From contig NC_057745.1 in NCBI RefSeq assembly GCF_004010195.1, forward strand, positions 20,270,943 to 20,334,942: a stretch of 64,000 nt of DNA, read 5' to 3'. This DNA is from Chiloscyllium plagiosum (taxonomy: Eukaryota). Positions within the stretch are counted from its first letter, which is position 1. Every line of letters begins with the position of its first letter. Below the pieces are notes generated by a model. The model was not told the DNA's origin. It was given only the letters and a program-made list of their open reading frames with translations, and did no database searches. A program made the position numbers and the translations under genes. Below, one piece after another: positions 7,601 to 38,939 of this stretch.

Positions 7601-10600
7601 CTCACATGCAATTCTAGCAGCAGGAAGAGAACCCCAGCTTTTAACTAAAACAGAGAGGAAAAAAATTCAGAGCTTCCACATCCAGCACCTGCAGAAAACC
7701 AGAACTAAAGATCCTGGTTCTGTGGGAGCTTGACCCCACCCATTCAAGCTGCTTCTATTGTTCCAACTTGAGAAAACACCCAAGGCCTCACAACCTGTTT
7801 GCTTTATTGGCTTTCAGCAGACTGATTTGTGCCTCTATCTCAACCTTTTTTCATTTATTAAAAAAAAGGACAAAAATACCTCTTAAAGCTGTAGTATTGT
7901 TAAATGTGAGAGTCAGAAACTTGAAAATTTGACCTAAACATGATGTTTCAGAATAATAAACTTGCACGACAATTGTACAGATAGAGGAACATGCCAGAAA
8001 ACAGATTGAAGAGATGAAAGAACAAGAGCGAAGAAAAGCTACTGAAGAGTTGGAACAGTGGAAGCTGCAGAAGCATGAAGAAGAGAAATTAAAGAGAAAG
8101 GAGGAACTAAAGCATGCAAAGCAGAAAATTGAGGCAGAGAAAAGGAGGATGAAGAAGAAGGAAGAAGCCAAAATACAGAATTCTGACTCACGAACTTCAA
8201 ACAAACATTCAGTTAAAGGAGGTAAACCTATTTCAAATCAGCGATTTAATTCGGATTTCCTTTTACATAAAGACAAAATCAGCAAGAGAGAATTTAAAAT
8301 AACATTAAAATAACAAGTCTTAAGAATACCCATAAAAGATGCAGCATGTGACATTAAGCTAAGTGGATTTCAGATTCATTGTACCTCTCACTCATTTTAA
8401 GTTTTCTCCCTGCCTTTGGTTTCCTCCTTCCCTTATGCTCAACTACACTCTTAGCCAAGAGAGACCTTAGGTTAGCCCATGTTAGTTGGAACAAAGTAAC
8501 TTGTTTGTTGGAATATTCAAATGTACTGCCAGCATGACTGACCTGAGTCATACGGTAGGCGATTGGGTCTGGGTGGGTTACTCTTTGGAAGGTAGGTGTG
8601 GACTTGTTGTGCCAAAGAGTCTGTTTCCGCACTGTAGGGATTCTATGATTCTATGCTGATTTGCTGATTTTGGGGATAAGTTGGGGGGAATGGGTTGATC
8701 TCTCTTTTGCAGTTTCTTTGCACGACTGAGTGTGGAATTTGATGTTTGGGGCTTTAAATTGGAATTTAGAGAATAATAAACCAGTACTCGATCCAAAAAT
8801 CATGTTTATATTATGTCATTTTTTTGCTGTATGTATAAACAGGTATTATAGAAGTGTACTTCTTTCTTTTGGATATTTGTTAAAGATACTTTATTATTTA
8901 GCTAAACAACTTACTTCACCAAAAAGCACTTTTTATTCATTCACGGGATGAGAGTGTCACTGGCTAGGCCAGCATTTATTGCTCATCCCAGAGGACACTT
9001 AAAAGTCAACCACACTGCTGTGGTCTGGAGTCACATGTAGTCCAGGCGAAGTAAGGATAACAGTTTCATTCCCTAAAGGACATTAGTGAACTAATGGGTT
9101 TTTCCGACAAGGGACTCTTAATTCCACATTTTTATTGAATTTAAGTTCCATAATCTGCTGTGGCAGGATTCAAACCCAGATCCCTAGAACATTACTGGAT
9201 CTCTGAATTAACAGTCCAGTGATAATACCACTATACTAATGCCTCCCCTTTATTTGAGAGAAGACATTTCATCAATATACTGAGGACTGAGAAGTGAACA
9301 TGCAACTGTACAGAATCTTCTGGTGCGATGTTTGACACTGAATGTGTTTAATACCTAATATGTGTAGCACTGTGACAACATCAGGATACAGCAGCTCAAA
9401 TGTATTCAATTAAGATAAGCATTCCTTTTTATACTGACACTGTTGATTTTGTTTAACCAAAAATGTTTTTTCTTACCTGCTCAAACATCATATTTTCCAT
9501 CCATGCTACTCTGCTTATGGTTTGACCTCAAGATGGTGCTCTCCTCCAAAAAGGGACATCGTTCATTGCAGGACCTACAAAGCCTGCCCACTAAAAAGGG
9601 TCATTCTGTCCAGAACATTTTCTGGATGAAAAATAATTAGACTATTCACGAGCAGCCAAAAACTCATCAAAAGCAGAAGAATAATGGTGTGAAGTTGTTA
9701 CATCTAATCAAGCAGGTGTAATATGCCATATGTAGCGTTCAAATATGCAAGTTGGCTGACCTCGCATTTATTTTATAAGTTGACATTGTGACTTAGTGTT
9801 TAGTACTTTGCAGTTCTAGTGCCACCTTGACATGACCACATTATCAGCTCCAATATCTTTTGTTTAAATAAGGTTAAATAAATTGGATTGGCGCTAACTT
9901 TTGGTTTTATTCATTCTACTTGACAATGCATAGTTCAATGCCTTGAAATTCCTTTTTCCGTATCGTAAAGATTTGTTTATCAAAGAAGTCAGTTGTTTCC
10001 TGATATATCTGTGGCAAATCTGTAGATCATATTAATAAAGGTACCTTTTCCTCCTACTTTAGTTCCTAACTGCAAACAAAAAGTATAATAATTTTTGCAG
10101 GATGGTATTTAATGGTTAACTTTTAACCATTGATTAATTGCAGGTACAGCTGCCAACATGTTTGCTGAAAACTACAATGACAAAATCATCCCAGATCCCC
10201 GTTCAGCTGGCAATATTGAAGTACAATTCACACCACGAGTTTTTCCTACAGCACTGAGAGAATCTCTTATTGCAGAGGAGGAAGAGGTTTGGGTTTTGTA
10301 AAAGTGAATACATTTCTTCAAACACATGCCATAATCAATGGAGAAATTGTTTCTGGACCTGTGAATCTCAGAAAACAAAGAAGTATTTATACATTGTTAA
10401 CTCTGATGGTTTGGCAGCTCACGTAATTAGTTTAAATATCCGGTTAGAGATGAGTTTCAAATTGAAAGGATAAGGAAATTATGGTGGTTTTGTATTGATT
10501 TTAGTAAAACCTGTTGTTTGCAGAATAAAATAATAGGTAGAAAAAAATATTGCATCTCTAAGTAGGTGCTGGGAATTAATATTTTTTCTAATTTATTTTA

Positions 10601-13600
10601 CATTTTAATTATCTTTTTCTGTTCTTTGTACTCACTTATACAGAGTTCCTCTTCAATAGCATGAATAGGCAAATTTATTTGGGTTTCTGCCAGATTTTAG
10701 TTTGTTATTGCTTGGGGTACAGGAATGCCATGATTATACTTGGATTACAATCTTACTTTGATGAATGTCATGTCTTAATCTTGATCAATTTTTAATGTAG
10801 TTCAAGTAAATTCTGAAACTCACTGTGAGGAATCCTAGATATGATTCTGTGTGGTGCTGTTGATTAGTTGCTGTTGGTTTACATTTGAGCTTTGGTTTAA
10901 TTTATTCTTGTTTCTTTGTTGTCCATATATTATAACCGAAAATCTAGGATGTGATCAAACGTTTACACTTAAAATGGTCTTTATAGATTTGATTTAGAAT
11001 TTCGAGAATGAAGTTGCTAAGTTTATAAAGCAGCTTTGTATAAGTTATGATGTGGAGGTGCCAGTTTCGGACTAGGGTGGACAAAGTTAAAAATCACACA
11101 ACACCAGGTTATGGTCCAACAGGTTTATTTGGAAACACTAGCTTTCGGAGCGCTGCTTCTTCAGGTAGCTGTGGAACAGGATCATAAGACACAGAATTTA
11201 TAGCAAAAGATTACAGAATCATGCAGCTGAAATGAAATATTGAACAAACCTAGATTGCTGTTAAGTCTTTCATCTTTTAGAAAGCTTTGCAGGTTTCGGT
11301 TCATTAATATGTTAATCCCAGAACTTCTTTTAAGTCACATTCTTGAGATATCGTAAGGTTTTATTAAAAAAAAGTGACATCTCAGCTCATACAATGTATG
11401 AAAGGTTTCTGAGCTGAGACATCATAAAACTTTAAGTTATCTCGAGAATGTAACTTAAAAGAAATTCTGGAATATACATATTAATGAAACGAAACCTGCA
11501 ACCCATTCTAAAAGATGAAAGACTTAACAACAATCTAGGTCTGTTCAATATATCATTTCAGCTGCATGACACTGTAATCTTTTGCTATAAATTCTTTGTC
11601 TTATGATCCTGTTCTACAGCTACCTGATGAAGGAGTAGCACTCTGAAAGCTAGTGTTTCCATATAACCTGGTGTTGTGTGATTTTTAACTTTGTGTAAGT
11701 TAAGATGCCTTAAGAAATATAATATACAATGAAAATTTATGAACTAAGGTTCTTCATTTGTTTACAGTGGTTAAGAAAACAGGCAGAAGCTAGACGAGCT
11801 AAAAATGCAAATATCCCTGAGCTTAAAGACCTGAAAGAAGAGGAGAAAAATCCAGACTGGCTGAAGGATAAGGGGAAGTAAGTTATGACAACATTTTTAA
11901 CAATTGATTGTAATATTAAAAAACTTCACACTTCCCTAACTCATCGGTAAAATACAAGGAACAGGACCAACTGCTGTACTTGGCCATTTTCAAACACTCA
12001 AAAAGTCTTTGTCTCCACCACCTGTGAAGACTTATGGAGTATCCTCCTCCAGTTTTCCTGCCATCAGAAGTTTTTGCCATCCTCCACCTACTCCATGATG
12101 ACATGTAAGCCTTAATCCTCATCAATGGAACATCAGAGTCTCTGTCAAGCAAGGTCAGGTAAGGCTGTTTCATTACACCAAACTTATTCTCCAACTTCTT
12201 GTCTGCAATACTGCACCTCACCACCAAATTACCCACTGACGGAAGTAATTTTCCTAACAGATGGGAAACTGTTTAATTCATATCACCTTCCATCCAATAC
12301 TAAAACCACTCAGCTCCGGTGAGTGGGTGCAGTAAACAGATGATGCTTGTGTGTGTATTCACTTAAAAACTGTGTCCAAAGTGATTGTTGATTCCTTCAT
12401 TGAAGCATTTGAAACAATAGGCTTTTCACTAAACTCAAGAAAATGTAAGGTCCCCTCTTCCAGTCAGCTCTCATGCCACAATAATTTGTTAATTAAGATC
12501 AACGGTGAGATCCTGAACAATATGTCCATTTTTATATCTGGGGAACCTCCTCAGGCCATTTGAGGCATTGGACAAATGCTACCAGTGATACCTTTGCAAA
12601 TTCTCCAAATTCAATAGCAAGAAAGGTGATCAAACAGCAGTATTCTCTCCCAAGCCAACATATCCACAATGGAAGACTTAACCACAAAACCATTTCCGCT
12701 AGGCAGAGCATATCATTTATATGCCTGACAGGAGACTTCTGAAACAAGTATTCCACATGGTCATGGCATGAATCCATTGTCGATTGTTGGAAACAATTGT
12801 TAGGGACATCTTCAAAGCACTCAAAAGCTCTACTGAACAGCTCTACTAATTCACGGGAGTCTCTGCTTGTGACTAACGAAAATTAAGAAAGTTAATTCGA
12901 AAAGGCACCAAATAAATGGAGACACTTCATTGGGAAAATGTAGAGGTAAAGTTGAGACATTGAAGGGAATTAGCTGTATGATCTTCACACAGTGACTGAA
13001 AGGAGTCTTAACTGCCTTTGGTTAAAAAGGAGAGAATTACCCCGTGTTTTTGCTTTGGTCACTATACAGTAATTCTTGCCAGACATGTATATGCATAAAA
13101 ATTGGGTGAAGACACAAAAAGAGTTGGTTAGAGTGTGGAATTCTCTGTCTCAACCTGCTGTCAAAACAACTGCTGCTGAGCGTATAAGAGCTTTTAAACA
13201 AGAATTAAGGTAGATGCTGAAAAAAAGAGACATGGGCAGAAAATGAGAGATGATATGATTCTGCCAAAATATCTTGACAAATGATATTGTGACATTTGCT
13301 TGAATAAATGCCACTCACAAGATGTACTTGACTGGTGGAAATTTATTTGCTTTAGCAGCAGTTTGTGACACAGAATATTACAATCTCACCATCTCTGAGG
13401 AAATACTTTATTTGAAGTACTTCTGCAATTCTCCAGGAAAGTGTTAGTCAATGAGATAGGAAGATGATTTGAGGATTAAAAAAACTACTCATCATTGCAT
13501 TTGTTTAAACATTATTTTAATATCCAGAGAAAACAGCCAGTACATTAATGACGGACTACTGATTGAAACAACTTGCTCACCCATTCAATAACTGACCCAT

Positions 13601-16600
13601 CAGTCTAGAAGCCATTCTGGTCTGTTGCTGAAGCCTTTCAATGATTTCTGCTGATCCTGATGCTAATAACATAATAGTTGGAAAAACGGTGATATAAAGT
13701 GCTGAATCTCACCAGAATTGGCTAAATACCAATTTTGGTGAGTGTCATGGTGATGTCCACAAGATCTGGCAATTTTTCTCATGCTCTCTTCCCAACCTGC
13801 CTCATTATTTTGCATCACACCTCTATGGTTTTCTGCTTGTTGTATTCTTCCACTTGTCATAGGTAGCAATACTTACCTGTGCTGGACATCCCAAGATTCC
13901 TATTGCTAATGCTGTATTTAAAGCCCAGCCATGCACTCAGCCAAGTGGTGGCAATTTTGAGCTACCATTCACCATGCACGTAGTGGAAGGGCAAGCAAAA
14001 GTAATGCTTTTCTTAACACATAGATGGTACAGCTGATGCTTCATTGCATTTACAAGTGCATATTCAAACATCTATTGCTATTTAAGAAAAAGCTGCACAG
14101 CTTATCTGTCCTTAGCTTCATTCCAACTTACAGTCCTATCTTAGGCAGTGCTACTCTTTCCCCAATGTCCTTTGTAGCCCAACAGCTTATCATTGTTCAG
14201 TGTGGTTCCTTCACATACAGGAAAGCCTTCAAAAGTTTCACATCATTCACTTTTAATCAGCAATGGTAAAAGCAAACAATAAAACAAGCAGAAGATACAT
14301 TTGCGAATGGCAGCAGTCAGGGATAGCTTGCCCTTCAAGAACCAGCACACCTACAGTCAATGAGTAATCACTGTAACCAGCTCTCAGTTATTGGAACTGG
14401 TGTCAGTTAACCAGTGTGTCTTATTGCACTCGATGCTTCAGTGCTCAATCATGCAGAACGTGATGTTCCTCCTGTGCTATGTCACCATCTTCCTCCTCAT
14501 ATGACTGCTGATAGTCTCCCAGCTCTTCAGAATCCATCATTTTTTGTTTATTCATTCATGGGATTGCCTAGAGGGCATTTAAGAGTCAACCGCGTTGCTG
14601 TGGGTCGAGTCACATGTAGGCCAGACCAGGTAAGGATGGCAGTTTCCTTCCCTTAAGGGTATCAGTGAACCTGATGGGTTTTTCCAACAATCGTCAATGG
14701 ATTCATGGTCTTCATTAGATTCTTAATTCCAGATATTTATTGAATTCAAATTCCACCATCTGCCATGGTTGAACTGGAACCCGGGCCTCAGAACCCTATC
14801 TGGGTCTCTGAATTAACGGTCTGGCAATAATATCACTAGGCCATCACCTCCCCTTGTTGCCTACTCCAGTTGTACAGAATACAGCATCTTGGGATAATGT
14901 GATGTACTCTGTCTGGAGTGAACTGCAATGCCCTTCAACGCTGATCCAAACATTGAATATCTTCCTCTGGAAGTTTTTATCTGCTTCACCATAGTCTTTG
15001 TGGAAGAACAGGCTGCATTGTATTGATGCCCAATTTCAGTCAAGGGGTTGCTTAATGGAGTCATCAGCCAAGGTCACAAAAGTTAGATCTGGTCTCCCAG
15101 TAACCATATTTATAAGGCATCTGGCCCTTGAAACAAAGCAGGAACTACCTAATTCCAAATTTTTATTGAATTAAAATTCCACCAACTGCCATGGGGGGTT
15201 CTGAACCTGAGTCTCCAGAATATTTCCTTGGTTTCTGGATTAATAGCCTAGTGATAATACCACTGTGCCATTGCCTTTCCTCCATTTGCCTTTCTATCTG
15301 CTACCTAATTGGTTGAAACTTACTTTCCACTCAGAATGTAAATGTTACAATTAACCATATTGTCCTTTGAAAACAATGCATGCATCTATGTTAGGTGAAG
15401 TCAGTGATGCCGCAACTCTGTAGCCCTCCATATTCAAATTGTTTATGAACAGGAACTGTTTGGTCTTTCACATAATTATGTGGCACTTGGAAAATTAATT
15501 CAATGATTTGCCTTTTCTATGTATCCTCTGAAAGAAATTCTGGAATATATTACATTGTTGTCGATAATAAAGTAATGACTAACTGCAGTAAGTGATCTTC
15601 ATTTGTGGCAGTCTGTACATTGTTAGCCATGAAGACCTGTTTAATTTCCCTGTAATACACTTCAAATCAGGTTATCATATTGTTCAAATATTATTTTTCT
15701 CTTCCAGCAAGCTCTTTGCATCCGGAGATTATCTTGCAGCAATTAATGCCTATAATTTGGGAATACAATTGAATAATAAACTTCCAGCCCTATATCTGAA
15801 CCGGGCTGCAAGCCACCTTAAACTAAGAAATTTACACAAAGCCATTGAAGACTCCTCCAAGGTTAGTTCATGTTCAGTTTCTGGGAAATTAGTTAATGCT
15901 GATCAATTGAATAAGGCAAAATTAACCATAATTCAGTTTGTGTGCACATTTAAGAACCTTCCTGTGTCCAAGTCACTTTTTGCATCAGGGTCAGTTACAA
16001 AATTAAGGTAAATCATAAAATTCCATCTGTTACAGAACAATATGAAATTATATATTTGTTATGAAGGGATTGGCGTTTGGTTATTTGTCCCACATTTTTA
16101 TTTCTCTGATGTGGAATGCATTGCTTCCTGTGTCAGGGGATAAACAGGGGCCACAATCATTCCCTCTCTTATGCTAGAGCAACTCATTAAATTGAAGGTT
16201 GCAAAATCATCCAGCCAAAATGACAGTATTCTTTTTAAATAGATACGGATTAAATTCTGTGGCAGTCACCGGGACTTGATTTGCTATTTTAATCTGTGGC
16301 CTGAGTGGAAACACTGTGATTGCTAGGTTGGTGCATGATGCTTTAAGTTACTTACTACTCTTGGAATATTTTACACACACTTTTTAAACATAACCTACAG
16401 CTCTTTTTATATTATATCTTTTTACTTGCTTAACTATATATTTTTCCTTTAGGCACTTGATTTGTTAACTCCTGCTGTTCCAGATAATGCAAATGGCAGA
16501 CTGAAAGCCCATGTTCGAAGAGGAACAGCATTTTGTGAGCTGGAACTCTACGTAGAAGGTAAGAGAACTTTTTGATACTTTGTGCACTGAAATTAGGGGA

Positions 16601-18098
16601 TAGTGGTAATTTCACTCGACTAGTAATCCAGAACTCTCGCCTGTTGTTCTGGGGATATGGATTCAAAGTCTATTATGGTAGTTGGTGAAATTTGAATTTG
16701 TTAAAAATATGGAATTAAGAGAAAGCCTTTTTATTGTTCATAAATTATGGTAAATTATAAAACAGACTTTTGGGACTTTCTGGAAGAAAATCTGCCTCTT
16801 TACCTCGTCTGGCTCATGTGTCTCCAGACTCTTGGCAATGTAGTTGGCTCTTAACCGTCCTCTGGATGAGCAATAATTGCTGGTGAAGCCAGCAACATCC
16901 CTATCCCACAAACATATGAAAAAAAATGTAGTAATATATAATTAGCAAATATTAGATATTGGAATTAAAACAGGGCTACACCAGTTTTTCCCTTCCCAAC
17001 TTTTTTCCTCTTTCTCATTCTTTCCTTAATACTGTAATATGTGAAGATTCAAATACCGCACCAGTTAATGAACTCTGAAGTTATTTAGAATTAACTTCAG
17101 GTATGGCAATGTACAGATTAGTGTGTGTTTAAGAATAAATTTTAACCACAGTCAGCAAAACAATAGCATATAGCTATTTCTTTGTGCTTCGCTCTTTCCC
17201 TTATTTTCTCACTTTTCAGGTCATTTATAGAATTATAGAATCCCTAAGCTGTACGGAGAGGCTATTCGGCCCATTGAATTTTCCAGAGTCCTCCAAAGAG
17301 CATCCCAGCCTATTTCCGTAACCTCACGGTGACCACAGCTAACCCAGGACACTATGGGCAATTCATTTTGGCCAATCCACCTAACCTACATATCTTTGGA
17401 CTTTTGGAGGAACCCAGAGCACCTGGAAGAAATCCACATAGACATGGGAGAGCATGCAAATGCCACACAGACAGTCACCCAAGGCTGAAATTGAACCATG
17501 GCCCCTGGCGCTGTGAGGCAGCAGTGCTAACCACTGTACCACCATACCTTTATATGCCCAACATCACAAGGAGTGAGGAGATAAAACTTCATTTTTTCCC
17601 AACTCAACCTGTCCATCTAAACCTTAACAAAGTTATGTTGGAACATGGAGCTATGGGATTTAGCTGTGTGGTTGTCAGTGTTGGTGAACTATGCAATTTG
17701 GCATGTGTTCTAACCAAACTTCATCTCGCCATCATTGAGGGTGAAGAGAAACACACTCAGCAAATGTGCAAAATCTGCAATTGCTTGCTAATCATAATTT
17801 AGAATTCTGATATTTTTTCCTGTTAATAGTCTAGGCACACTGAAGCCAATTATATTTTCCCACTGCTTCTTCAACTGAGATCTTGCAGACCAGTACATTC
17901 TAGTAATTCAATATGAATTTTGTGGTTTACAATCACATCACAGCAGATTTGATTTATTCAAGGGATTATTTAATTTATGGTCTGGCAGGCCTTCAGGATT
18001 TTGAAGCGGCTCTCAAGATTGACCCAAATAACAAGACAATACAAGACGATGCAGAAAAGATACGACGAGTGATTCAAGGAACACCTCCAGACCCCTAA
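1490..18098 (+). CDS. DNAAF4: Dynein axonemal assembly factor 4 (DYX1C1), complete 9-exon CDS: join(1490-1612,3558-3705,3870-4003,7981-8221,10144-10286,11768-11877,15708-15861,16453-16558,17989-18098), 1269 nt, 422 aa
   Basis: All exons are GT-AG bounded with consistent phases. Translation gives an N-terminal CS/p23 domain ([12 protein letters not shown]...[12 protein letters not shown]), a coiled coil, [13 protein letters not shown] and C-terminal TPRs ([15 protein letters not shown]...[30 protein letters not shown]), as in vertebrate DNAAF4. Confidence 0.97.
1843..1882 (-). ncRNA. Minimal type-I hammerhead ribozyme (Penelope-type), core intact
   Basis: Minus strand reads CAGUU-CUGAAGA-A-GGGUC-AAUG-GAUCC-GAAA-CG-UC^-AACUG: 5-bp helix I, 5-bp helix II, palindromic ACGU. 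Confidence 0.8.
1904..2086. mobile_element. Penelope family B fold-back element with a 13-bp TSD, nested in another Penelope pLTR fragment (~1805-2160, -)
   Basis: Inverted arms AAAATCACACAACACCAGGTTATAGTCCAACAGGTTTAATTG; TSD TAGGAAAAGATTG at 1891-1903 and 2087-2099. Confidence 0.85.
2235..2269 (+). ncRNA. Minimal hammerhead, family B, mildly degenerate
   Basis: CAC-CUGAUGA-A-GAAGC-AGU-GCUCC-GAAA-GG-UA^-GUG; one helix II mismatch and palindrome AGCU changed to AGGU. Confidence 0.6.
2505..3515 (-). mobile_element. CR1/HER1 LINE 3' fragment
   Basis: [12 protein letters not shown]...[11 protein letters not shown]...[15 protein letters not shown]. Confidence 0.92.
3558..3705 (+). CDS. DNAAF4: DNAAF4 coding exon 2 (148 nt)
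   Basis: tttaacag|GTG; [45 protein letters not shown]; donor G|gtaagc. Confidence 0.95.
3870..4003 (+). CDS. DNAAF4: DNAAF4 coding exon 3 (134 nt)
   Basis: ctttgatag|; [20 protein letters not shown]...EKTMK; donor AAG|gtaact. Confidence 0.93.
4500..6672 (+). mobile_element. CR1/HER1 LINE, 5'-truncated and decayed
   Basis: RT motifs [16 protein letters not shown] and [11 protein letters not shown]; typical 3' tail. Confidence 0.92.
7267..7904 (-). mobile_element. Probable solo LTR
   Basis: Starts TGTAATGAACC and ends TTGTTAAA (decayed TG..CA inverted ends); ~640 bp; no clear TSD. Confidence 0.5.
7981..8221 (+). CDS. DNAAF4: DNAAF4 coding exon 4 (241 nt)
   Basis: ttgtacag|ATA; [28 protein letters not shown]...; donor G|gtaaac; phase 1 matches the next exon. 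Confidence 0.9.
8930..9248 (-). mobile_element. Second tRNA-derived SINE family (SacSINE1/DeuSINE-like); other copies at ~14545-14852 (-), ~15155-15280 (-), ~16595-16915 (+) and ~57020-57335 (+)
   Basis: Shared core GGTCTGGAGTCACATGTAG..CCAG..AGGTAAGGA and a tRNA-like head. The family name is from recall only. Confidence 0.7.
10144..10286 (+). CDS. DNAAF4: DNAAF4 coding exon 5 (143 nt)
   Basis: ttgcag|; [33 protein letters not shown]; donor GAG|gtttgg. Confidence 0.93.
11053..11694. mobile_element. Penelope family B long fold-back element (~300-bp inverted arms)
   Basis: 11081-~11390 is the reverse complement of ~11410-11694; flanks CTTTGTATAAGTTATGATG and CTTTGTGTAAGTTAAGATG form an imperfect TSD. 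Confidence 0.85.
11621..11655 (+). ncRNA. Minimal hammerhead, family B, core intact, sense to DNAAF4 pre-mRNA
   Basis: UAC-CUGAUGA-A-GGAGU-AGC-ACUCU-GAAA-GC-UA^-GUG; all helix positions pair (including G-U). Confidence 0.75.
11768..11877 (+). CDS. DNAAF4: DNAAF4 coding exon 6 (110 nt)
   Basis: tttacag|TGG; [36 protein letters not shown]; donor AA|gtaagt. Confidence 0.95.
11940..12965 (+). mobile_element. Highly decayed RTE-like LINE RT fragment
   Basis: Remnants resembling GVKQGCxxAPTLF and YADD regions and [12 protein letters not shown]. Confidence 0.5.
15708..15861 (+). CDS. DNAAF4: DNAAF4 coding exon 7 (154 nt)
   Basis: cttccag|C; [51 protein letters not shown] (TPR); donor AAG|gttagt. 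Confidence 0.95.
16453..16558 (+). CDS. DNAAF4: DNAAF4 coding exon 8 (106 nt)
   Basis: cctttag|GCA; [35 protein letters not shown]; donor G|gtaaga. Confidence 0.95.
17228..17545 (-). mobile_element. HE1-type SINE (older copy)
   Basis: GCGCTGTGAGGCAGCAGTGCTAACCACTG is the reverse complement of the SINE head. Confidence 0.8.
17989..18098 (+). CDS. DNAAF4: DNAAF4 coding exon 9 (110 nt, to TAA)
   Basis: tctggcag|GC; [35 protein letters not shown]. Confidence 0.94.
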
Positions 18099-18911
18099 AT
18101 GCAAGGTAAGAAATGTCAAGAATTTAGAGATCTATTCACAGAAAAAAAAGCCCTTCAGCCCATTGTGTGTGCACTGGTCAAAAACAACCACCTAACAATT
18201 CTGTTCCCGTTTACAAGCACTTGGCCCATAGCCTTGTATGCCTTTGCATTGCAAGTGCACATCTAAATATTTACTGACAGTTAGTGTATTTCTGTCTTAC
18301 ACCTTCTGTTGGGACATAAACATTGTTTTCGGAGGGGCAAATAAATCCAAAGCAATAATCCAAATCAGCCTTTGTTCGATTTTCTGAGGAAAATTTGAAG
18401 TTAAATCAGTTTGAACTAAAAGATTTCTAGAGTCCTTGACTAATACTGCAATGAATTAATTAATGGTGCAATTGCATTTCTTTCTTTATGAGAAGCTGAA
18501 GTCTTTTATTCATTTGTGGTACTCCTTTTAGAATTGAGTATATGCCTTCACAGTTATGAGGTTGGAATAGTTAATCGTATGCCTGTTACACAACCATTTT
18601 AGATCTGTTAGAACAGTTGCATTATAAAGTCTTCACCTGCTGAACAGCTCCAGTTAAAACTGCAGCTGGCAGATGTACTCATTCACATGACTTTGGAATG
18701 ACTATATCTCTGCCAAGAAATGTTGTTATTTGAAATTACTCGCTTGAGTCTCCAGTCAACCTTGCATCAACCTTGACTCCATTGTAGTGAAGCTTTATGG
18801 AATAACTCCACATAGGCTGTTATCCACCAAGTCGCCCTTTGTTTACCATGAAGAGTCCTTGGCACTGATTCAGCTCTGTAAAAGCCAGCTGTCAGAGTAA
18901 CAGAATCTCTG

Positions 18912-19304: not shown

Positions 19305-19467
19305 GCCCCAATCAGGGAACTCATTCTATGAGGTTCACCTGGCTGACCTTGTTACTATCACTACATCCCTCCCCCTCTGATTCCAAGGGTATACGTTGGT
19401 TGTTTTTTTTGTCGCTCCTCCTGGATCATTTTCGCACCAGGTCAGGTTCCTCCAACTTTGCCTTGCA

Positions 19468-29285: not shown

Positions 29286-29785
29286 NNNNNNNNNNNNNNN
29301 NNNNNNNNNNNNNNNNNNNNNNNNNNNNNNNNNNNNNNNNNNNNNNNNNNNNNNNNNNNNNNNNNNNNNNNNNNNNNNNNNNNNNNNNNNNNNNNNNNNN
29401 NNNNNNNNNNNNNNNNNNNNNNNNNNNNNNNNNNNNNNNNNNNNNNNNNNNNNNNNNNNNNNNNNNNNNNNNNNNNNNNNNNNNNNNNNNNNNNNNNNNN
29501 NNNNNNNNNNNNNNNNNNNNNNNNNNNNNNNNNNNNNNNNNNNNNNNNNNNNNNNNNNNNNNNNNNNNNNNNNNNNNNNNNNNNNNNNNNNNNNNNNNNN
29601 NNNNNNNNNNNNNNNNNNNNNNNNNNNNNNNNNNNNNNNNNNNNNNNNNNNNNNNNNNNNNNNNNNNNNNNNNNNNNNNNNNNNNNNNNNNNNNNNNNNN
29701 NNNNNNNNNNNNNNNNNNNNNNNNNNNNNNNNNNNNNNNNNNNNNNNNNNNNNNNNNNNNNNNNNNNNNNNNNNNNNNNNNNNNN
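29286..29785. other. Assembly gap (500 N)
   Basis: Run of N. Confidence 1.
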
Positions 29786-31388
29786 AAAAATATAAAATGT
29801 ATCTAAGTGGAGATTTTCTCCCTTGTTCCCAGGGGGTGTCACTTCCTCTCCAATAGTCCATCATATCCTCTCCCAACCAATGCCCCACCCTTGACCCAGG
29901 CACTCCTCAATAAAATGAGGAGAATTCAGATATAATACAAAGCTAGAGTTAACAGTGAGCACCCTACCCCAACCCATACCAACACCTGGATATATTTGGT
30001 AATGTTAATACCATATATAAACATTTAACTATAAAATTATAACCTCAACAAATAATAAATAAATATACTAATACAAAATAACAAGGGAGAAACAACCCTG
30101 CTCCTAAAGACAAAGGTAAAATTGAATAAGGTAACCACCTCCCCCACCAACATTAACCAAACCCCCCAGCTTATATATATACACATACATACACATACAT
30201 CCCACATATATGCACAAAAAAAAAAGAAAACAACCCCAAGGGGGGGGAGAAAATCAAATCCCTCTCCCCACGATAATATTAATCAGTAAAGTAAGAAAAA
30301 AAAGGGGGATATAAACCAAAGCGGGAGGAAAGGCAAACCAACATCCATTATGTCTTACAATTTATCTAAGAGAGTCCAAGAATTCCTTAGCCTTTCTGGC
30401 GATCCGAAGTTATATACGGATCCTTCATGGTTAAAGCGTAGCATCGCTGGGTAGCGTACGGAGAACTGAATATTTAAGTCCCTTAAACGCTTCTTCGCCT
30501 CGTCGAATGCCTTCCTCTTTCGGACCAGAGCTGGGGAAAAGTCCTGGAATAACATGATCTTGGATCCTTTATAGATCATAGCTTGGGGGTCTTTTCCAAG
30601 ATTTCTAGAGGCTTCTAGGAGTATCTGCCTCTCCTTGTAGCTCTGCAGCCGGAACAGTATCGGGCGTGGGCGCTGGTTCGAGCCAGGTCCGCGTATTGTG
30701 ACCCGGTAGGCCCATTCCACCCTTACCTGGCCTGATCCAGCTTCCAGATTTAAAAGCTGTGGCAGCCACTTCTCGAGGAACGCTGTAAGCTGGCCTTCCT
30801 CTTCCCATTCGGGAAGGCCCAGCAAACGAATATTTTTTCGACGACCTCGATTATCGATGTCGTCAATGTAATTCTCTAAGGTCCGGACTTGCTGTTCGAG
30901 AGTCCGGACTCGATCCATGGCCGATTGCGCTGTGGTTTCGGAGGTCGCAGCCTTTAACTTCGCCCCTCCGACTCGGCGCTCGATCTCCTTAATGTCTCGG
31001 TCGTGCTTCTGCAGTGCGGCCGAGAGTGAGTCCCATCGACTTCAGGACTCCTCGATAAAAGCATCAATCTTCGCGTCCAGCTTGGAGATCATCTCCACAA
31101 GGCTTGTCACTGTAGGTAAGTCCCCCGGGGCGGCTGTGGACACCTCAGCTGCAGCTGGAGAGGGTGGGGGAGGGGTTCCTGCTTGCTGAGAGCTGCGGGC
31201 TCCCTTCCCTTTGGTCATTTTTACTAAATATCAGACTATTTAAATGTAATACTAAGCAACTAATTAAATTAAACAGCTATTATGAATGATTTGGTGAGTG
31301 TGATGGGGGTGGGTGACCCACTTTACCCGAGTCTTGGGAAGAGCACTATAGACTCACACTTGCTGGGTCGCCACCATCTTGGATCCCC
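29786..31388 (-). mobile_element. L1-clade LINE 5' part: 5' UTR, ORF1 (31218-30355, one in-frame TGA at 31044-31042) and inter-ORF, running into an assembly gap
   Basis: The 5' end GGGGATCCAAGATGGTGGCG is YY1-like; ORF1 LENYIDDIDNRGRRKNIRLLGLPE...FQDFSPALVRKRKAF resembles L1 ORF1p. Confidence 0.9.
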
Positions 31389-33134
31389 AACAATCTCCTA
31401 GTTTTATGTTTACTATTAGTTAAACTAGTTTTTATTCCAGAATTACTCAATTAGTTAATTAACTGTATTTGAATGCCCAACAACTGCTGTGGGATTTGGA
31501 TTCACAGATTACTGATTCAGTGAGATATCCAGAATACCTTGGGTATCACCAATTATCTATCAATATTTGAATAAAACATCTTCCATAATAAAGTAAAAGT
31601 TTATCATTTAACAAAGAGATTCCATCCCTTTTTGGTATATATTGATGAAGTTTCTCTGATCTACCATTTTGGAATTAAGAGCTATTTTAAATTATACAGT
31701 ACCAAGGACTTAAAGTTTTAATTTTGTAGTGAGATTAGAAACTGATATTTAAAATCATTGAGGACTATAATTTATCACATTTAGCACAGTGCTTTGGATA
31801 ACAAATTATACCATTCAGGAAAATAAAATTGTACTGTATCGATGATTTGTAGTTGCAGGATCATTTGATACCTCAGTGTGGTCATCCCTGTCCTTTTGCA
31901 AGTTGCCCAGGCCTAGGTCAGAGTTCCCTGCTCAAGGTTACAAACTAGGCTCAGTGATGGAACCAGCAAATTTTTGGTGGTGATGACGGAAGAGCAAGAA
32001 CCTCAAGGTTACAGCTGTTTACAGGCAGAGGACACCTCAACAAAAGTGGTTTTGTTTCCTTTAAATGCACATGGGAAAGATAACAGGAAGCCACCTTGTA
32101 TTCTTTTCCGTTGTTATATTGCTCATTGCTATTGGTAGTTGTCAGTGTCAGGTTCTTATAAACAACTGAAGAGCAATGCAAGGCAAAGGGAAATGGGCAC
32201 AGGATCTATCCTTGGGATGATTCACACTACACAAGAATGAATACTAATTTTCTAAATTGTTTAAGAGGACACTAAGTAGTATCAAAAGAAGTGAAGGAAT
32301 ATTCAGAAAAATGTGATTGTTAACGAGGTTTTAATATCCTTGGCATATGCTTCATTTCTTTGGAACTGCTTCAAGTTTCACTTTATCAGCTTGTTTTTTT
32401 AAAGAAGTAGCTATATTATTATGGGCTAGCTATTTGATAAAGAGATACATTTTGTGATATATAAAACCAAAAGAAAGACAATGTGTAACTGAACTGTGAC
32501 TCTCTCTGCTGACCTGTCGGGTATTTTCTTTTGCCTATTCTGTTTCTTTAATATATTGTAGGCATTATTTGGAGAAATTACAATTAAAGTGCCTTTGTTC
32601 TGTTTAATGATTACTTTGAAAGTAGATATAAGCAAGCTGGCGTTCATTTACACATTTCAACTGCTAACATTGAAATTTCAAGGGAATATTGTGAGTGAGT
32701 CAGGATTTATGCCTTTTTTCAAGCAATTAAATCTCCTGTTAAAGAAAATCATAGGGACTTCTGTAACATCAATAGCACATAACAGCATAGTTTCAAGAAA
32801 GTGAAGTAGTGTGATCCATAACTGTAAAGTTGCACATACAGTATTGGTATTTGTGTTCAGACAGTATGTTGTCTGTGGATAAATCTTGTTCAGATAGAGG
32901 ACAGGTTAGAGATCACATGTAGAGATGGGCAGTGTGAGACACCAATAGACACATTTTTGAGGAACTAGAACATACTGTAAAGTAGAACACTGTGTACTGT
33001 AGAACACACTGTAAAGTAATCTAATCTAATAAATGACAGGCTGAAGGGACCCCATTTTGTACTGTAAAATTTGATGATTCTTATAGTATTGAATAGGGTG
33101 ATGTTGAGCAATGTACTGGTATTTTAAAGAAAAT

Positions 33135-33620
33135 ATTTAGGGATGTGGGTCTCACAGGGTGGGCCAGCATTTATTGCCTGCTCCTAATTACCTGTGAGAA
33201 AGCGGTGGTGAGCAATCATCTTGAACCACTGTAGGAACATGTCCAACACATTTGCTCGGGACTTCCAAGAGCTTGACCCAACAAAGAGAATGTATGATGA
33301 TATATTTCCAAATCTGGATTGTGAGTGGATTGGAGAGGAACTTGCAGGTGGTGGTGTTGCTGTGTTTCTATTGTGTCATCCTCTTTGATGGTAGATGTCA
33401 TGGGTTTGGAAGGTCCTAAGGAGCCTTTATGAATTTTGGGAGTGCATCTTGTAGATGGAGCACAATGTTGCTAATGAGCATTGGTAATAGAGAGAATGAA
33501 TGGTTATGGATGTGGTGCCTGTCAAGTGTGCTGCTTTGTCCTGGATGATGTTAAGCCTCTTGAAAGTTGTAGGAACTATAGTCACCAAGACAATTAGGGA
33601 GTATTCCATCACTTTCTTGA
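33135..33620 (-). mobile_element. LINE 3' fragment (CR1/L2 group); related copies at ~43610-44165 (+) and ~63075-63240 (-)
   Basis: KVKKVMEYS...RLNIIQDKAAHL; 3' end GCAATAAATGCTGGCC shared with the second SINE family. Confidence 0.7.
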
Positions 33621-33621
33621 C

Positions 33622-34010
33622 TTTGATTTGATTTGATTTATTATCACATGTACCGAAGTACAATGAAAAGCTTTGAGTACAAGCAGAACATAGGAAGCAC
33701 AGATGTACAGACAGGATGTACAGATCAAAAAGACTTAGACAGAGGCATACAGGTTACATTGCACAGGGTGTGCTCTAGGTGAGATCAACATTAGCTAGAT
33801 CAGCATTATTTGAAGCAAGAGAGTCCATTCATCAGTCTAATAATGGCTAGGAAGAAGCTGTTCCTGAACCTGCTGGTGCATGTGTTCAGGCTTCTGTATC
33901 TTCTGCCTGACGGAAGAGGTTGTAGAAGATCTTTACTGGGATGCAATGGGTCTTTGATGCTGGCAGCCTTTCCGCGGTTGCGAGCAGTGTAAATGGAGTC
34001 CATGGATGGA
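33622..34010 (-). mobile_element. Rex1/Babar-like LINE 3' fragment with a (CAAAT)n tail
   Basis: DPLHPSKDLLQPLPSGRRYRSLNTCTSRFRNSFF. Confidence 0.7.
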
Positions 34011-34720
34011 AGTCAAAAAGTGTGGTGCTGGAAAAGCACAGCCAGTCAGGCAGCATCCAAGGAGCAGGAGAGTTGACGTTTTGAGCATGAGCTCTTCATC
34101 AGGAATGAGGTGATGGCCCAAGGGAGCTGGGAGATAAATGGAGGAGGGGGAGGAGGGCTGCTGGGGGAAGGTGGCTGGAAATGCCATTAGTAAATGAAGC
34201 TGGGGGGTGATGGTGATAGGTCGAGGAGGAGGGTGAAGCAGATAGGTAGGAAGGAAGACAGACAGGTAGGCCAGTTCAAGAGGGTGTTGCTGAGTTGGAA
34301 GGTTGGCTCTGGGATAAGGTGGGAGGAAGGGAAAATGAGAAAACTATTGAAATCTACATTGATCCTGTTTGGTTGGAGGGTTCCAAGGCAGAAGATGAAG
34401 CATTCTTCCTCCAGGCGATGGGTGGCTAGCGTTTGGCAGTGGAGGAGGCCCAGGACTTGCATATCCTTGGTGGAGTGGGAGGGGGAGTTAAAGTGTTCGG
34501 CCACAGGGTGGTGGAGTTGTTTAGTGCGTGTGTCCCAGAGATGTTATGTGAAATGTTTCACAAGTTGGTGTCCTGTCTCTCCAATATAGAGGAGACCACA
34601 TCGGGAGCAACGGACACAGTAGATGACATGTGCAGAAGTACAGATAAATCTCTGTCGGATGTGGAAGGATCATTTGGGGCGTTGAACGGAGATGAATGGG
34701 GAGGTGTGGGTGCAAAGCAA
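34010..34720 (-). mobile_element. Penelope-like retroelement 3' fragment: GIY-YIG endonuclease followed by a pLTR with a degenerate hammerhead (34072-34105)
   Basis: Minus frame reads FICTSAHVIYCVRCSRCGLLYIGETGHQL...VAEHFNSPSHS...LGTLQPNRINVDF. Downstream is CUGAUGA-A-GAGC-UCAU-GCUC-AAAA-CGUC (G12 mutated). Confidence 0.9.
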
Positions 34721-35703
34721 AATAGTTGGTCAATCTGAGCCTGGATTTAGACTGTACTTTTAGCATTGTGGGATAAACAAACACTTAATTGTAATTTAAT
34801 TTAAACTGGATTTTATTGACACACCAAATCCCAATAGCTTCACTCACAGTAATTGAATTACATGCTGTTTAAATTAGGGAAGTTATGAACAATTTGGGAC
34901 CAGAAGCAAGTGTGTCATATTCAGGAGCTACATAATATATGCAATAATCTTAATACATTACTTAGTCAGCGAGAGCAGGGCTGCCAAAATGGGTGGTCTT
35001 TAAAATTATAGGATGGTTCTGGACAGTATTAATTGTTGAAGTAGCACTAGTCTTTAAATTGTTGAAATTTGGAGGTATTTTAAAGTTAAACAAGATAAAT
35101 CAGATTGGTATTTCAGGTCACAGATTAGAAATTGAGCCTAAACAAATTACTGACAAAGAGTAAGAGAATGAGACATGGAACTATTTTATCTAAATTACAA
35201 ACATAGGGACAGAAATGTAAGAGTGGGTTTGGGGGTGGGGACGGAACCATTGTTTTTACAAGTTGCTGCTGAGAAAGGAAATGGTGAGATGGGGAAGTGG
35301 TATTGTGCTGGGAGGCTTTTGAAATGCATCTGTAAGAGCCAGCAGACTTTGCATGCTAAACAAATACAAGGTGCAACAGCACTATCCGGTGTAGGAGTTT
35401 GTAAGATTTTACGTGAAAGAAAACATTTGATTGCTCGTTCTTGACATTTGTTGGGTCTGTCTATGTTCTTCCGAATGCTGCTTTATCAAGCATGCCTGAA
35501 AGAAATTATGACAAGAATACAGTTGTATACGTGATACATTTACATAAATTCTAATTTTGCACAATCTGTCCCCAGTCTCACAGACAAAACTGAGATGTTC
35601 TATTCATGGTGCCAACAAATATTAGCAGAAAATGTCATCAGTTGACTATTACAATACCACATGCACTCTCGAACCACGACGGCTTGCTCCCAGTCTCTTG
35701 AAG

Positions 35704-36561
35704 TCAAAGGGGGAGTAAATCGTGCACTCTCCTTTTGTCCGACCCAGTATTTAGGGAACGGTTACGGTACATCCCGCCAGTTTGAAGCACTGCAGAGAAG
35801 GACTGCGTTAGTGGTTTGTAGACTGAAGGTGCAATTTCACATGTCGGTTGGTTGGACCCATATGATGCACTGGTGGTTCTGAAGAGTGGATTTTGAGGTT
35901 TAACGAACGGAACGGGGGAATATGCCGCCGTCGGGAATTTCGCCATGCAAGAAAAGACAGGGTTACCAGGATTCGCGCAGGGAGACCACGGCTTCTCCAT
36001 ATCCTCTGCTTTTGCAGCAGTGGCTGGAATAGGACTACTTTCACTCGTTTCCTTTTTATGTTCAATTTCTGGAGCTAGAGATTGACTGCGATCATCACGG
36101 ACTGAGTTCTTACACTCACCCTTTGGAGCAAAGGATAAACGGACATCATCACACACACTGTCATCACATGGTTTTGCAACAAAAGCTGGATTGAAATCAT
36201 CCCGCACTTCATCACACTGAACCTTCTGAGCATGGGCTAAATCAACATCGTCACACATTATGTCCTTAGATTCAACCTTGGGCGCAAAAGATTGGTTAAA
36301 ATCCTTACATATTGAGTCTTCAATCTGATCCTTCTGAACAAGGGATGAATTAGGATCAATTTCACAATTTGTAGGCTCAACTTTTGAAAAGGGCAGTTTG
36401 GGATTGTCACACACCGAGTCTTCAAAGTGAATCTTTCCAGCGAGGGATGAGTTGGTATTGTCATCTCTGGGCTCAGCCTGGGGAGCAGTGGGATCATCAT
36501 CACAGTTCGGGTCTTTGAACTGAACTTTTCGAGCAGTCGCTCGAGTGGGATGACAGCTCAT
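35704..36561 (-). CDS. PIERCE2: Piercer of microtubule wall 2 (C15orf65 orthologue), 285 aa, with an N-terminal repeat extension
   Basis: The C-terminal ~98 aa (PCANPGNPVFSCM...KPQNPLFRTTSASYG...FSAVLQTGGMYRNRSLNT) match the PIERCE1/2 family. First ATG (ACCATGA) is at 36561; the ORF-track start at 36573 is TTG. Position head-to-head with CCPG1 is syntenic with mammals. Confidence 0.9.
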   Translation of the reverse strand: MSCHPTRATARKVQFKDPNCDDDPTAPQAEPRDDNTNSSLAGKIHFEDSVCDNPKLPFSKVEPTNCEIDPNSSLVQKDQIEDSICKDFNQSFAPKVESKDIMCDDVDLAHAQKVQCDEVRDDFNPAFVAKPCDDSVCDDVRLSFAPKGECKNSVRDDRSQSLAPEIEHKKETSESSPIPATAAKAEDMEKPWSPCANPGNPVFSCMAKFPTAAYSPVPFVKPQNPLFRTTSASYGSNQPTCEIAPSVYKPLTQSFSAVLQTGGMYRNRSLNTGSDKRRVHDLLPL

Positions 36562-36779
36562 GGTCCCTTTCAATAGGAAAATTCAGGTCTTCCCAGGTAG
36601 AACACAGTTTTTACACGGTCCTTTCTGCTCCTGATTTCCAGCACCCGCAATTCTTTGTTTTGTTTTCCCCCTTTCTGGGGCGTTCACAGATCCCTGCAGC
36701 TCCCCTTTGGCCAAGTACCAGTTTGACTGTGAAGTGAAGCAGTATCCAGAGGGAAATATTGTAACCAATGCAGTCAGCT

Positions 36780-37460
36780 GAAACCCTTAGCCCATGGTTA
36801 CCATGGAAGCATTATTCGGCTCGAGCTGTTTGTTGTGGCAGCGGAGCCTTGGTAACGGCGTCTGATTGGTTGTTCGTCATGACGGAGGCGTGTTCGACGG
36901 GTGTTTGTGCGGTGCATTCTGGTTGTAGTCCGGGGGCGGGGGAAGAGGCTGGTTTGGTGAGCGGGGAAGCGGTTGGGCTTGGGACTGCAAATCCCAGAAT
37001 GCCGCGCGGTGAGGCGGGGTTGCGCGCAACCGCCCTGCCGGGAGGGGGCGGGGCTTCGTTCGGCAGCGTCAGTCAAAACATCACAAGAGGAGGGGGTGGG
37101 GTCGGGGCTGGCCGCAGCCCCTGGAGGCTGTTGTTTTTTAACGGGTCAACAACAGCGTTTTACTTATCGCCGGCTGAAGGGAGAGGCGGCAGGTAAGGCT
37201 TGCTGGGGCCTGGTTCGAGGCCTGGCGCGGGAGGGAGTCGCGATCGTCGCTGTCTCCCGGGGTGACGGATCGCGGGCCCCAAGGGGGGGGGAGGAATTGG
37301 TCTGAGCTGGGAAAGGCCGCGGGCGTAGGCTGAGGGGCCTCGGGCTCAGGTTAACCTTATCCTGCCTCGAATGACCCATTTCCCCGACTCCTCCCCCGGT
37401 TTAAACCGCTCCGGCGCCGTCCCTGTTATTATTGCTGCGCGCTGGGGAGGAAGCTTCGCA
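36780..37460. promoter_or_regulatory. CpG-island bidirectional promoter shared by PIERCE2 and CCPG1
   Basis: GC/CpG-rich island in an AT-rich background. X-box-like GTTACCATGGAAGC at 36797-36810 and GGAGCCTTGGTAAC at 36843-36856; inverted CCAAT at 36865-36869; GC boxes near 36933, 37013 and 37045; ZNF143-like sites at 36914-36929 (-) and 36984-37002 (+). Confidence 0.85.
37075..37192 (+). other. CCPG1: CCPG1 non-coding exon 1 (start approximate)
   Basis: Strong donor CAG|gtaagg at 37192/37193 inside the CpG island. The exon holding the CCPG1 ATG has an acceptor at 42757 and so needs an upstream exon. Confidence 0.65.
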
Positions 37461-38939
37461 AAGTCACTTGTTTGTTTTTGGTCCAACCTCTACAGGCTTC
37501 AGACCCCACTGGCTCTGGTTTTCCTTCACACAGATTGCAAACGATTGCATGATCTGACTGCACTCTCACTGACGTAATTCCCTCCTCCCCACCCCCCACC
37601 TTTCCCCCGTTTCTTGTGGAAATGGGAGTAACGCGCACCTCTCAGACTGCACGGTTTACTGAGGAAGGCTGGAATTAAACCGGACCTCCGCCAGCGCCTT
37701 CTTCACAGCCAAATCTTTGATCGCAGTTGTTGATGAAACCGTCCTCTCACAGCAACAGCCGACGAGGAACAGTTGCTGCTGTTGTTGACATTCTCTTTTT
37801 TTTGTTTTGCAAACCATGATCTGCATTTTGGGCAGCGCTTTCTGCACTTCCCTAATTTCCCTGGGAAGGCAGGTCACAACTAAGTCATTGCTCCCTAACT
37901 TTTCAACACTATCCCACTAGCCGTTCCATGAGCCATTCCTTACAGTAGTGCTGACAGTAATTACAACATGGGCCTGGAAGGATCATTAATGAAGATTTAC
38001 TATCTCAAACTCTCATGAAACACCTAATTCTTAAAACATGATTGCTATGAGATGCCAGGGAACAAACCATAGAATGGGGCTAATATGATTTAAGGATGCA
38101 ACATGTGCATCTAAGTCAAAAGTCAAGAATTTCTTAATTCTGCTGTTAGCCTACCAAGGATTCAGATAGAAATCTCAATCTTTTATGGAATATGCTATGA
38201 CTGTCTTGGGGAACAAGGATATCATATCCTTCTTATGTTTGAGGTTGCAAAGCCTTTTATTTTGTTAGCTCTGAAGTGGTCCTGCTTCTTTTCCCTCCCC
38301 CATATGACTCCTGGTTTTTGTCTGGCATTTTTCTCCAGCAGCACAACTGTCATTGACAGTTCAACAAAGTGGAAAATTATATCATTCCATGGTTACAACA
38401 CAGGAGGAGGTAATTCAGCCTGCTGGAATGACTGTGGGATACAGGCGGGCAAACAATGCATTATCTCAATGACTATAATTTCAGTAACTATTTTTGGTTT
38501 TATTCAAACAAAAAATTTGCTTAGAACTGGAAGAGAATTTGGGCTAAGGAGGTCTATTTTATTCTGAGTAATTTCAATCGTGCCTCTAGTATTATTCCTT
38601 CATCTCTACTAACCTATTTGGTTTTATTTTCAACTCGTTTATAATATTGACTTTTGTCACTTGTTTGAGAACTTATTTTGCTGTTATTTTTAATGTAAAA
38701 CCAAGTTGCCTAACTGCTGTTTTTGCCCCAAACTCGTCTCCTTTGCGTCAGAGAATGATTTGCCTAAAACATTTTAGTTAATCCCTTCTGTCATTTATGA
38801 TTGTGAATTTAATCTTTAGATTCTCGTTTGGTTTGTGATTAATGGATGTTATAAGTATTCTTGTGGTAATAAAACTATTAAAACAGTGCAGAATATTTAG
38901 CATCTTGAAACCAATTTTAAACTGTAAGTATTTCACGGA

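Follow-up and report, generated by a model that had tools for sequence, protein, structure and literature searches.

A long elasmobranch form of PIERCE2 with a conserved, repeat-built N-terminal arm and a candidate PP1-docking motif

PIERCE proteins are short structural proteins known to link the interior of the doublet microtubule to its outside. In mammals, PIERCE2 lies between DNAAF4 and CCPG1 and is arranged head to head with CCPG1. Solved mammalian chains (PF14892; PDB 7RRO, 7UNG and 8I7R) are 120-122 aa long, in agreement with the ~120 aa quoted in a preliminary description of the locus analyzed here, and named relatives in frogs (115-159 aa), two teleosts (106 and 122 aa), a hummingbird (117 aa) and a tunicate (130 aa) span 106-159 aa. 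According to the available text of PMC8595878, in which the mouse PIERCE2 is called Ccpg1os, Pierce proteins contact CFAP53 with their N-termini inside the lumen, and their C-terminal part extends to the dynein docking complex on the outer side. N-terminal additions are already known in the family; based on the same partial source, Chlamydomonas FAP182 carries a nucleotidyltransferase domain as a large addition in front of its Pierce-type C-terminus. A second relevant system is PPP1R32/IIIG9, a protein of another family that binds PP1 and carries the motif RKVHF (PMC9600092, as far as available) and that the accessible part of 10.1101/2022.09.29.510157 places in the lumen of bovine sperm doublets, at protofilament A01 and tektin 1.

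Here, we describe a PIERCE2 gene from the shark Chiloscyllium plagiosum, located in a 64,000-nucleotide stretch of DNA (the window), that encodes 285 aa. The size of ~120 aa typical of PIERCE2 is thus absent, and we regard the greater length as a variant feature. The coding sequence and its two parts are as follows.

35704..36561, minus strand: PIERCE2 (C15orf65) coding sequence, 285 aa, ATG at 36561 to stop at 35704, a single frame without interruption
35707..36000, minus strand: PIERCE2 core, residues 188-285, with the CxNPGNPxFSCM motif and PF14892 at residues 221-276
36001..36561, minus strand: N-terminal extension (the arm), residues 1-187, acidic and predicted to be disordered

The preliminary description had named the gene PIERCE2, and its Pfam and PDB matches together with the neighboring DNAAF4 and CCPG1 support that identity. 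PF14892 matches residues 221-276 with an E value of 2.7e-12 and 47.1 bits (curated Pfam cut-off, 27). Four Pierce2 chains in the PDB (120-122 aa) align to residues 180-281 with E values of 4e-17 to 1e-15, while Pierce1 chains are weaker (7e-10 or weaker; mammalian Pierce1, 9e-7 or weaker). Thus, the core, including its CxNPGNPxFSCM motif, is that of known PIERCE2. The neighbors are as follows.

7960..18100, plus strand: DNAAF4 (DYX1C1) exons, with a TPR match and the stop near 18100; syntenic neighbor
37083..37192, plus strand: CCPG1 exon 1, head to head with PIERCE2 and spliced to exon 2 at 42757

We take the plus-strand exons up to ~18100 to be DNAAF4 by their sequence and the head-to-head gene to be CCPG1 by its N-terminal sequence and synteny. 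As in mammals, PIERCE2 lies between the two. The frame is fully open from 36561 to 35704, bearing out the claim that neither a stop nor a frameshift interrupts the extension, whereas the other five frames contain 4-33 stops each in this region.

The arm is built from degenerate repeats.

36022..36534, minus strand: repeat array of ten units, each 12-19 aa long, over residues 10-180; shark consensus ARKVEFKDSVCDDLNLSF

The preliminary description proposed a ~190-aa extension with about eight acidic, Cys-containing repeats of 17-18 aa. The length holds as 187 aa up to Met188, but the real gain over mammalian PIERCE2 is ~165 aa. All eight quoted units are present; however, the true count is ten, with units 2 and 10 left out of the first list, and the units vary between 12 and 19 aa. 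Only six of the ten have Cys at the consensus place; two others have Arg there with a Cys further up, and two have no Cys. The acidic character stands, with a net charge of -15 and a pI of 4.6 in the arm compared with a pI of 9.4 in the core.

Five A-B pairs, each 31-36 aa long, are the best description of the array. The protein is most similar to itself at lags of 52, 34 and 18 aa (best z 6.9, p 0.003; 300 shuffles), at the DNA level a repeat family has five copies spaced by 93-108 nt, and in the horn shark units 1, 3, 5 and 7 cluster together and units 2, 4, 6 and 10 do likewise. With unit boundaries set by hand, units match the others above shuffles with z scores of 2.9-6.3 in the window protein, 4.9-11.8 in the horn shark and 3.8-8.4 at the DNA level. 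Tandem Repeats Finder did not detect the array. An origin of the repeats as copies of the core CxNPGNPxFS is unsupported (z 1.3 in the window protein, 2.8 in the horn shark and 2.4 at the DNA level versus 3-12 for true units). By eye, the shark unit consensus also lacks the Mn ([TS][TS]x4[YF]), PYG and GFG repeats of microtubule inner proteins, as these are given in the available text of PMC10973386. Periodicity is significant in all five sharks (p 0.003-0.02) and in none of the four ray/skate-type sequences (p 0.12-0.76), among which it has decayed. Unit-profile scores are circular for the five training sharks; only the four ray-type sequences are held-out matches.

A protein search limited to 156-499 aa gave nine matches among 514 candidates, including the window protein. 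The eight others (272-356 aa) come from whale shark, white shark, catshark, horn shark, Rhinoraja, Mobula, Hypanus and one further contig protein; these long elasmobranch proteins are already present in NCBI as uncharacterised predictions. In all eight, the arm is open, the start Met is aligned, and no frameshift of the extension, which would have spoken against it in related sharks, was found. In the arm, the shark proteins are 61-78% and the ray proteins 31-36% identical to the window protein; in the core, the values are 73-92%. Four giant proteins (P0039, P0084, P0098 and P0148; 2081-2618 aa) that matched the repeat profile with E values of 4e-14 to 3e-6 were rejected as look-alikes in period and in a K-I-x-F-x-D-S word; in the two inspected, the repeats are rich in Asn, Ser and Leu, lack Cys and acidic runs and belong to chains that resemble surface proteins. 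As a side observation, these giants belong to no known family; the two inspected have long repeats and a surface or structural look, and faint PKD matches occur in two of the four.

In an exhaustive profile search of 1.84 billion representatives, full-length matches were found for only three of the nine proteins, and the next Pierce matches began at position 150 or later, both among the best 150 of 216 matches. A search for shorter core-bearing homologues gave no candidate, although short relatives are known from other searches, and a metagenome scan for relatives gave 107 pattern matches, none of which was confirmed. In a tree of 84 cores (a quick method on 104 columns), the nine long proteins form one group (SH-aLRT 96) with P0010 as sister (support 95). 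P0010 has 115 aa and an altered CxNPGNP motif, its start coincides with and resembles the end of unit 10, and it may be a chimaera protein; the ESM Atlas returned only Pierce clusters for it. Judged from these sequences, the arm is elasmobranch-wide, and the suggestion of a lineage-restricted repeat module is supported for sharks and rays. Judging by how the repeats are patterned and by the shortness of the sister sequence, we infer that fivefold duplication of an A-B module of 31-36 codons ahead of the original N-terminus gave the shark-ray ancestor a disordered acidic arm. In the literature covered, chiefly outside the subscription journals, we found no description of a long cartilaginous-fish PIERCE2 or a PP1-binding Pierce protein; the supplementary alignments of PMC8595878 or PMC10973386 could include such long sequences.

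Transcript data bear on whether the arm is made. Four sequence runs (X5, X1, X13 and X15) were aligned to 35100-37500. In X5, from a relative that is ~97-98% identical, a 1881-nt contig reaches from beyond 35100 to 36770 and spans the whole ORF unspliced, with no indel listed in the coding sequence; X5 behaves as RNA, since the spliced CCPG1 junction is present and nothing lies in the CCPG1 intron. An identical contig in X1 covers 35115-37029, though X1 may contain DNA. X13 (genome-sized, type not given) confirms the sequence with three differing letters and no gap. In X15 (single-cell poly-A, ~2% of the run read), 20 reads were found, of which sense-type reads lie only at 35424-35828; over the arm, the depth is ~1 and the polarity opposite to PIERCE2. 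These plus-strand reads, at 35910-36071 and 36477-36800, are possibly antisense RNA or a library artefact. The following features flank the coding sequence.

36562..36770, minus strand: probable 5' leader, with no ATG from 36795 down to the start codon; the end of the X5 contig at 36770 is no proof of a start site
36797-36806 and 36847-36856, no strand assigned: two X-box-like sites, presumably for RFX, at the edge of a CpG-rich promoter common to CCPG1
34812..35703, minus strand: probable 3' UTR, with AATAAA at 34817 and sense-type reads at 35424-35828

The X5 contig ends just below the two sites that we take to be X-boxes, and the CpG o/e is 0.91 in 36800-37500 compared with 0.20 in 20000-28000. 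The long RNA contig as the tail of DNAAF4 was considered and rejected, as DNAAF4 stops near 18100, ~17 kb away.

It could be argued that the arm is untranslated, because a short exon further upstream is joined to the AG at 36024 or a later start codon is used, so that a short PIERCE2 is made and the long frame is an annotation artefact. There is no sense-strand raw read over the arm, a Pro-Ala/Val codon pair able to hold the AG is present in eight of the nine sequences, and P0010, the nearest short relative, starts about here. However, the unspliced X5 contig argues against this, and a joint to the ~36023 acceptor that the preliminary description had considered was listed in none of the four runs, two of which are RNA-type contigs, which carry no strand information and lose rare isoforms, while the raw run has 20 reads. 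The acceptor has 9 of 17 pyrimidines, a value matched by 45% of the AG sites in the window, the frame is open over at least 170 codons in all nine lineages, and the ATG at 36561 is the first after 36795 and has A at -3. Moreover, Met188, from which a 98-aa product had been envisaged, is private to the window species and absent in all eight homologues; therefore, the 98-aa product is no option, and the next Met common to the homologues falls inside the conserved FSCM motif. The listed differences of X5 in the arm comprise 11 non-synonymous and 8 synonymous changes (omega ~0.36, p 0.03), a value that covers these 19 and leaves 7 further X5 differences outside the count. Altogether, we consider an untranslated arm very improbable and translation of the arm highly likely; it is well supported that the gene is the elasmobranch orthologue of PIERCE2 and that its unspliced coding exon yields a single chain of 285 aa.

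Two short islands stand out in the arm. RDDFNP (residues 120-125) and ARKVQF (residues 10-15) are its best conserved six-residue windows, and the latter contains a match to the strict RVxF consensus [KR][KR][VI][not FIMYDP][FW], as given in the available part of PMC9600092. Neither these islands nor the luminal side of the Pierce N-termini figured in the preliminary description.

36517..36531, minus strand: strict RVxF, RKVQF, residues 11-15 at the head of unit 1; predicted PP1-docking site
36424..36438, minus strand: second RVxF position, residues 42-46 in unit 3; GKIHF here, a loose match only
36187..36204, minus strand: RDDFNP island at residues 120-125; the arm is most strongly conserved here

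All nine sequences have a strict RVxF (RKVQF, RRVQF or RKVHF), compared with 0.4-1% per shuffled arm; because the sequences are related, these are not nine independent tests, and the motif was noticed after the fact. The strict motif is in unit 1 in the window species, the horn shark and all four ray-type sequences and in unit 3, as RKVHF, in the four other sharks. Three sharks with a relaxed unit 1 keep the strict unit 3, and the window species and the rays, with a relaxed (window species) or lost (four ray/skate-type sequences) unit 3, keep the strict unit 1. In units 5, 7 and 9, the position has decayed. The RKVHF of unit 3 in four sharks is identical to that of PPP1R32, and both are microtubule inner proteins according to the partial sources cited above; PP1 binding is demonstrated for PPP1R32 and only predicted for shark PIERCE2. 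By eye, A-R-K-V-Q-F lacks the extended six-residue consensus in the available text of PMC4794898, which has two basic residues before the one preceding V; in these sequences, RK or RR follows an Ala. As in other RVxF PP1 interactors, the strict consensus lies in a disordered region, while no SILK or second motif was recognized in the shark arm. None of the named short PIERCE2 relatives has a repeat arm with RVxF.

The same data can be explained by a translated arm that is tolerated chiefly as an acidic spacer or as filling of the lumen, in which the RVxF words are repeat leftovers and only RDDFNP matters, by contacting CFAP53, tektin or another luminal protein. K-V-x-F-like words belong to the repeat consensus itself, and the shark-ray identity per column is 32% in the arm versus 74% in the core. 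Besides the decayed periodicity in rays, the arm varies from 173 to 257 aa across the nine sequences and its acidity is kept in eight of the nine, with Mobula near neutral and without the net negative charge. Long N-termini (at least 100 aa) are also found in 7 of 142 other Pierce proteins, some probably from faulty gene models. In permutation tests of shark-ray conservation, whose p ranges depend on window and score, RDDFNP reached p 0.001-0.07, and the RVxF island ranked second with p 0.01-0.6 over eight settings, mostly non-significant. Thus, RDDFNP is better supported than the RVxF island in conservation scans, and PP1 gives no explanation for RDDFNP, which loosely resembles the RF(D/E/N)(N/H)P word of Pierce1-type N-termini (likeness unscored). 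Arguing against a mere spacer, the strict RVxF is kept in every sequence while switching between two positions, at a place that decays in other units. In addition, an unrelated clade of long Pierce proteins also opens with the strict motif: among 142 anchorable of 161 other Pierce proteins, three have it (0.16 expected), and these (P0073, P0143 and P0157; two named Elysia) form one clade. Altogether, we view the spacer explanation as possible but rather doubtful, and an RVxF with a function in the arm is the reading that we develop below.

The arm is predicted to be disordered, in line with the earlier suggestion of a spacer-like character. AlphaFold2 gives a mean pLDDT of 39.5 (31-46 across the arm) without secondary structure in the arm, although the nine-row alignment limits this call and low pLDDT is expected from it anyway; FoldIndex is -0.11. 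Within these limits, the RVxF sits in a disordered region. Residues 1-186 have no Pfam match at E values up to 1, and the extension has no PDB match, which sets these disordered repeats apart from the folded addition of FAP182. The horn-shark arm had no feature match in the ESM Atlas (TM at most 0.35).

Cysteines could alternatively be the working part of the arm, as single thiols 13-19 residues apart that form disulfide cross-links in maturing sperm tails, hold lipid anchors or bind metal loosely together with Asp. Three of the ten arm Cys are invariant and three more are present in seven to eight of the nine aligned sequences, although the invariance may be inflated, as aligners favor Cys-Cys columns in decayed repeats. 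With six of ten Cys conserved in at least seven of nine sequences, thiols may have a redox or cross-linking role. Thiol oxidation occurs in mammalian sperm tails. Based on the available text of PMC11856307, additional longitudinal columns are present in elasmobranch sperm tails, and these tails operate in viscous media; however, the columns lie outside the axoneme and Pierce N-termini inside. The Ca or metal binding proposed in the preliminary description is unsupported: there is one Cys per unit with 0-3 loose Cys/His pairs per arm and no regular cluster, no Pfam family and no fold, and neither an EF-hand loop pattern nor zinc-finger or metallothionein ligand clusters were seen in the arm. 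We regard a cysteine-based function as unlikely.

To model the RVxF, a PP1 catalytic subunit encoded on a metagenome contig (E 1e-204 against solved PP1-alpha) served as a stand-in and was co-folded with residues 1-60. The predicted complex has an ipSAE of 0.70, compared with 0.00 for the best of three controls, and its confident interface joins arm residues 11-16 to PP1 residues 164-167, 240-241, 259 and 286-291, which we take to be the RVxF groove. The runs agree in at least 71% of contacts, with a partner pLDDT of 47. Among microbial pairs, 51 of 78 solved and 2 of 108 mismatched ones attained the score mark; among eukaryotic pairs, 39 of 65 solved and 2 of 126 unrelated ones did so. Because PP1-RVxF complexes have often been solved, PP1 was a stand-in and the tool is unvalidated on peptides or disordered chains, the pass may reflect memory; the model shows likeness to solved PP1 complexes, not binding.

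We suggest that the core still crosses the A-tubule wall and holds the dynein docking complex, as placed from mammalian structures, and that its N-terminal side lies in the lumen by CFAP53. Because Pierce N-termini are luminal in these structures, the arm would be luminal too and would work as a flexible tether (contour up to ~67 nm, coil span ~11 nm) strung with short motifs, not as a folded domain. The RVxF at its tip would dock PP1, such that PIERCE2 doubles as a PP1-targeting subunit; docked PP1 might then dephosphorylate PIERCE2 or axonemal proteins close by, either within the lumen or while the axoneme is being assembled, and RDDFNP would probably bind a second partner. According to the available part of 10.64898/2026.09.09.750541, a flexible spacer plus RVxF suffices to enhance dephosphorylation in vitro, best with 20-30 residues, so that the targets could be the arm's own serines or neighboring ones. 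Based on the sequences and the model, we consider a flexible luminal tether that recruits PP1 the best reading, with confidence and doubt in about equal measure. Against it counts that axonemal PP1 has been placed on the central apparatus, in what is available of that work, and the accessible text of the preprint that models PPP1R32 in sperm doublets (10.1101/2022.09.29.510157) does not mention PP1.

The partial text of that preprint also describes the A-tubule lumen of mammalian sperm as densely filled, so that a 165-aa arm plus PP1 may find little room there. This crowding favors an alternative in which the long protein is real and the arm acts outside the doublet lumen: while axonemes are assembled or in spermiogenesis, it could bind PP1 or a different partner in the cytoplasm and then be trimmed off, or the long form could have a non-axonemal job. 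Consistently, PPP1R32 works with PP1 at adherens junctions too, away from cilia (PMC9600092, available part), and the tissue source of the RNA runs is not given. However, the core is conserved across the group at the level described above and retains the PIERCE2 motifs, algal FAP182 has a large N-terminal domain (PMC8595878, available text), and a phosphatase, DUSP21, is among the luminal components of sperm doublets in mouse and cattle in the published structures as far as available. We find an arm acting outside the lumen distinctly unlikely and retain the luminal tether as the preferred reading.

The Elysia-clade proteins P0073, P0143 and P0157 offer a comparison. They have 253-260 aa with arms of 164-171 aa and carry KKVTF at residue 7; no repeat was noticed in their arms, and they do not match the shark profile (best stretch from position 171 or later). 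Given their sequences and their separate long branch in the tree, these arms are likely independent of the shark arm. Their arms also contain Cys and Pro, and the strict motif at their start is a possible convergence. We tentatively speculate, with more doubt than conviction, that sharks and rays made PIERCE2 a PP1-targeting subunit by multiplying a module that bears the motif, that sea slugs did so independently with their own Pierce protein, and that the Pierce N-terminus is a recurring enzyme socket, filled by a fused domain in algae and by a docked phosphatase in animals. A further family member, P0129 (384 aa), combines leucine-rich repeats with a C-terminal Pierce domain and is a fusion or a faulty gene model.

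The long protein is a real, conserved form of PIERCE2 with a specific but unproven mechanism. The ~165-residue longer form conserved in sharks and rays indicates that the luminal end can bear a large disordered appendage in a vertebrate, and the arm may give shark and ray cilia and sperm tails an extra control point. If the RVxF works, it would directly anchor PP1 on outer doublets close to where the dynein docking complex sits and would be a candidate for lineage-specific control of the unusual helical elasmobranch sperm; if PP1 targeting is true, a tethered phosphatase would be present every 48 nm where the lumen couples to the outer dynein arm. If the RVxF is idle, the arm would be an ordinary lineage-specific repeat expansion.

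Several minor observations concern the surroundings of the gene. A 36-nt stretch of the leader (36631-36666) matches many unrelated contigs in three runs and therefore looks like the tail of a dispersed repeat, presumably a shark SINE/LINE end; no second copy within 9 mismatches is present in the window. A 22-codon upstream frame (36812-36880, minus strand) runs across the X-box-like sites and would be in the leader only of longer minor transcripts that extend to 36901-37029. Just before 37083, three X15 reads have the template-switch adapter, pointing to a likely CCPG1 start ~310 nt from the PIERCE2 contig end. Between the DNAAF4 stop and the PIERCE2 3' end (18100-34800, ~17 kb), no long non-repeat frame was noticed. 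Decayed LINE-type frames, which we take to be reverse-transcriptase-like and ORF1-like pieces, lie at 2963-3550, 30355-31041, 46851-48543 and 50498-53397, and assembly gaps are located near 29280-29800 and 47860-48350.
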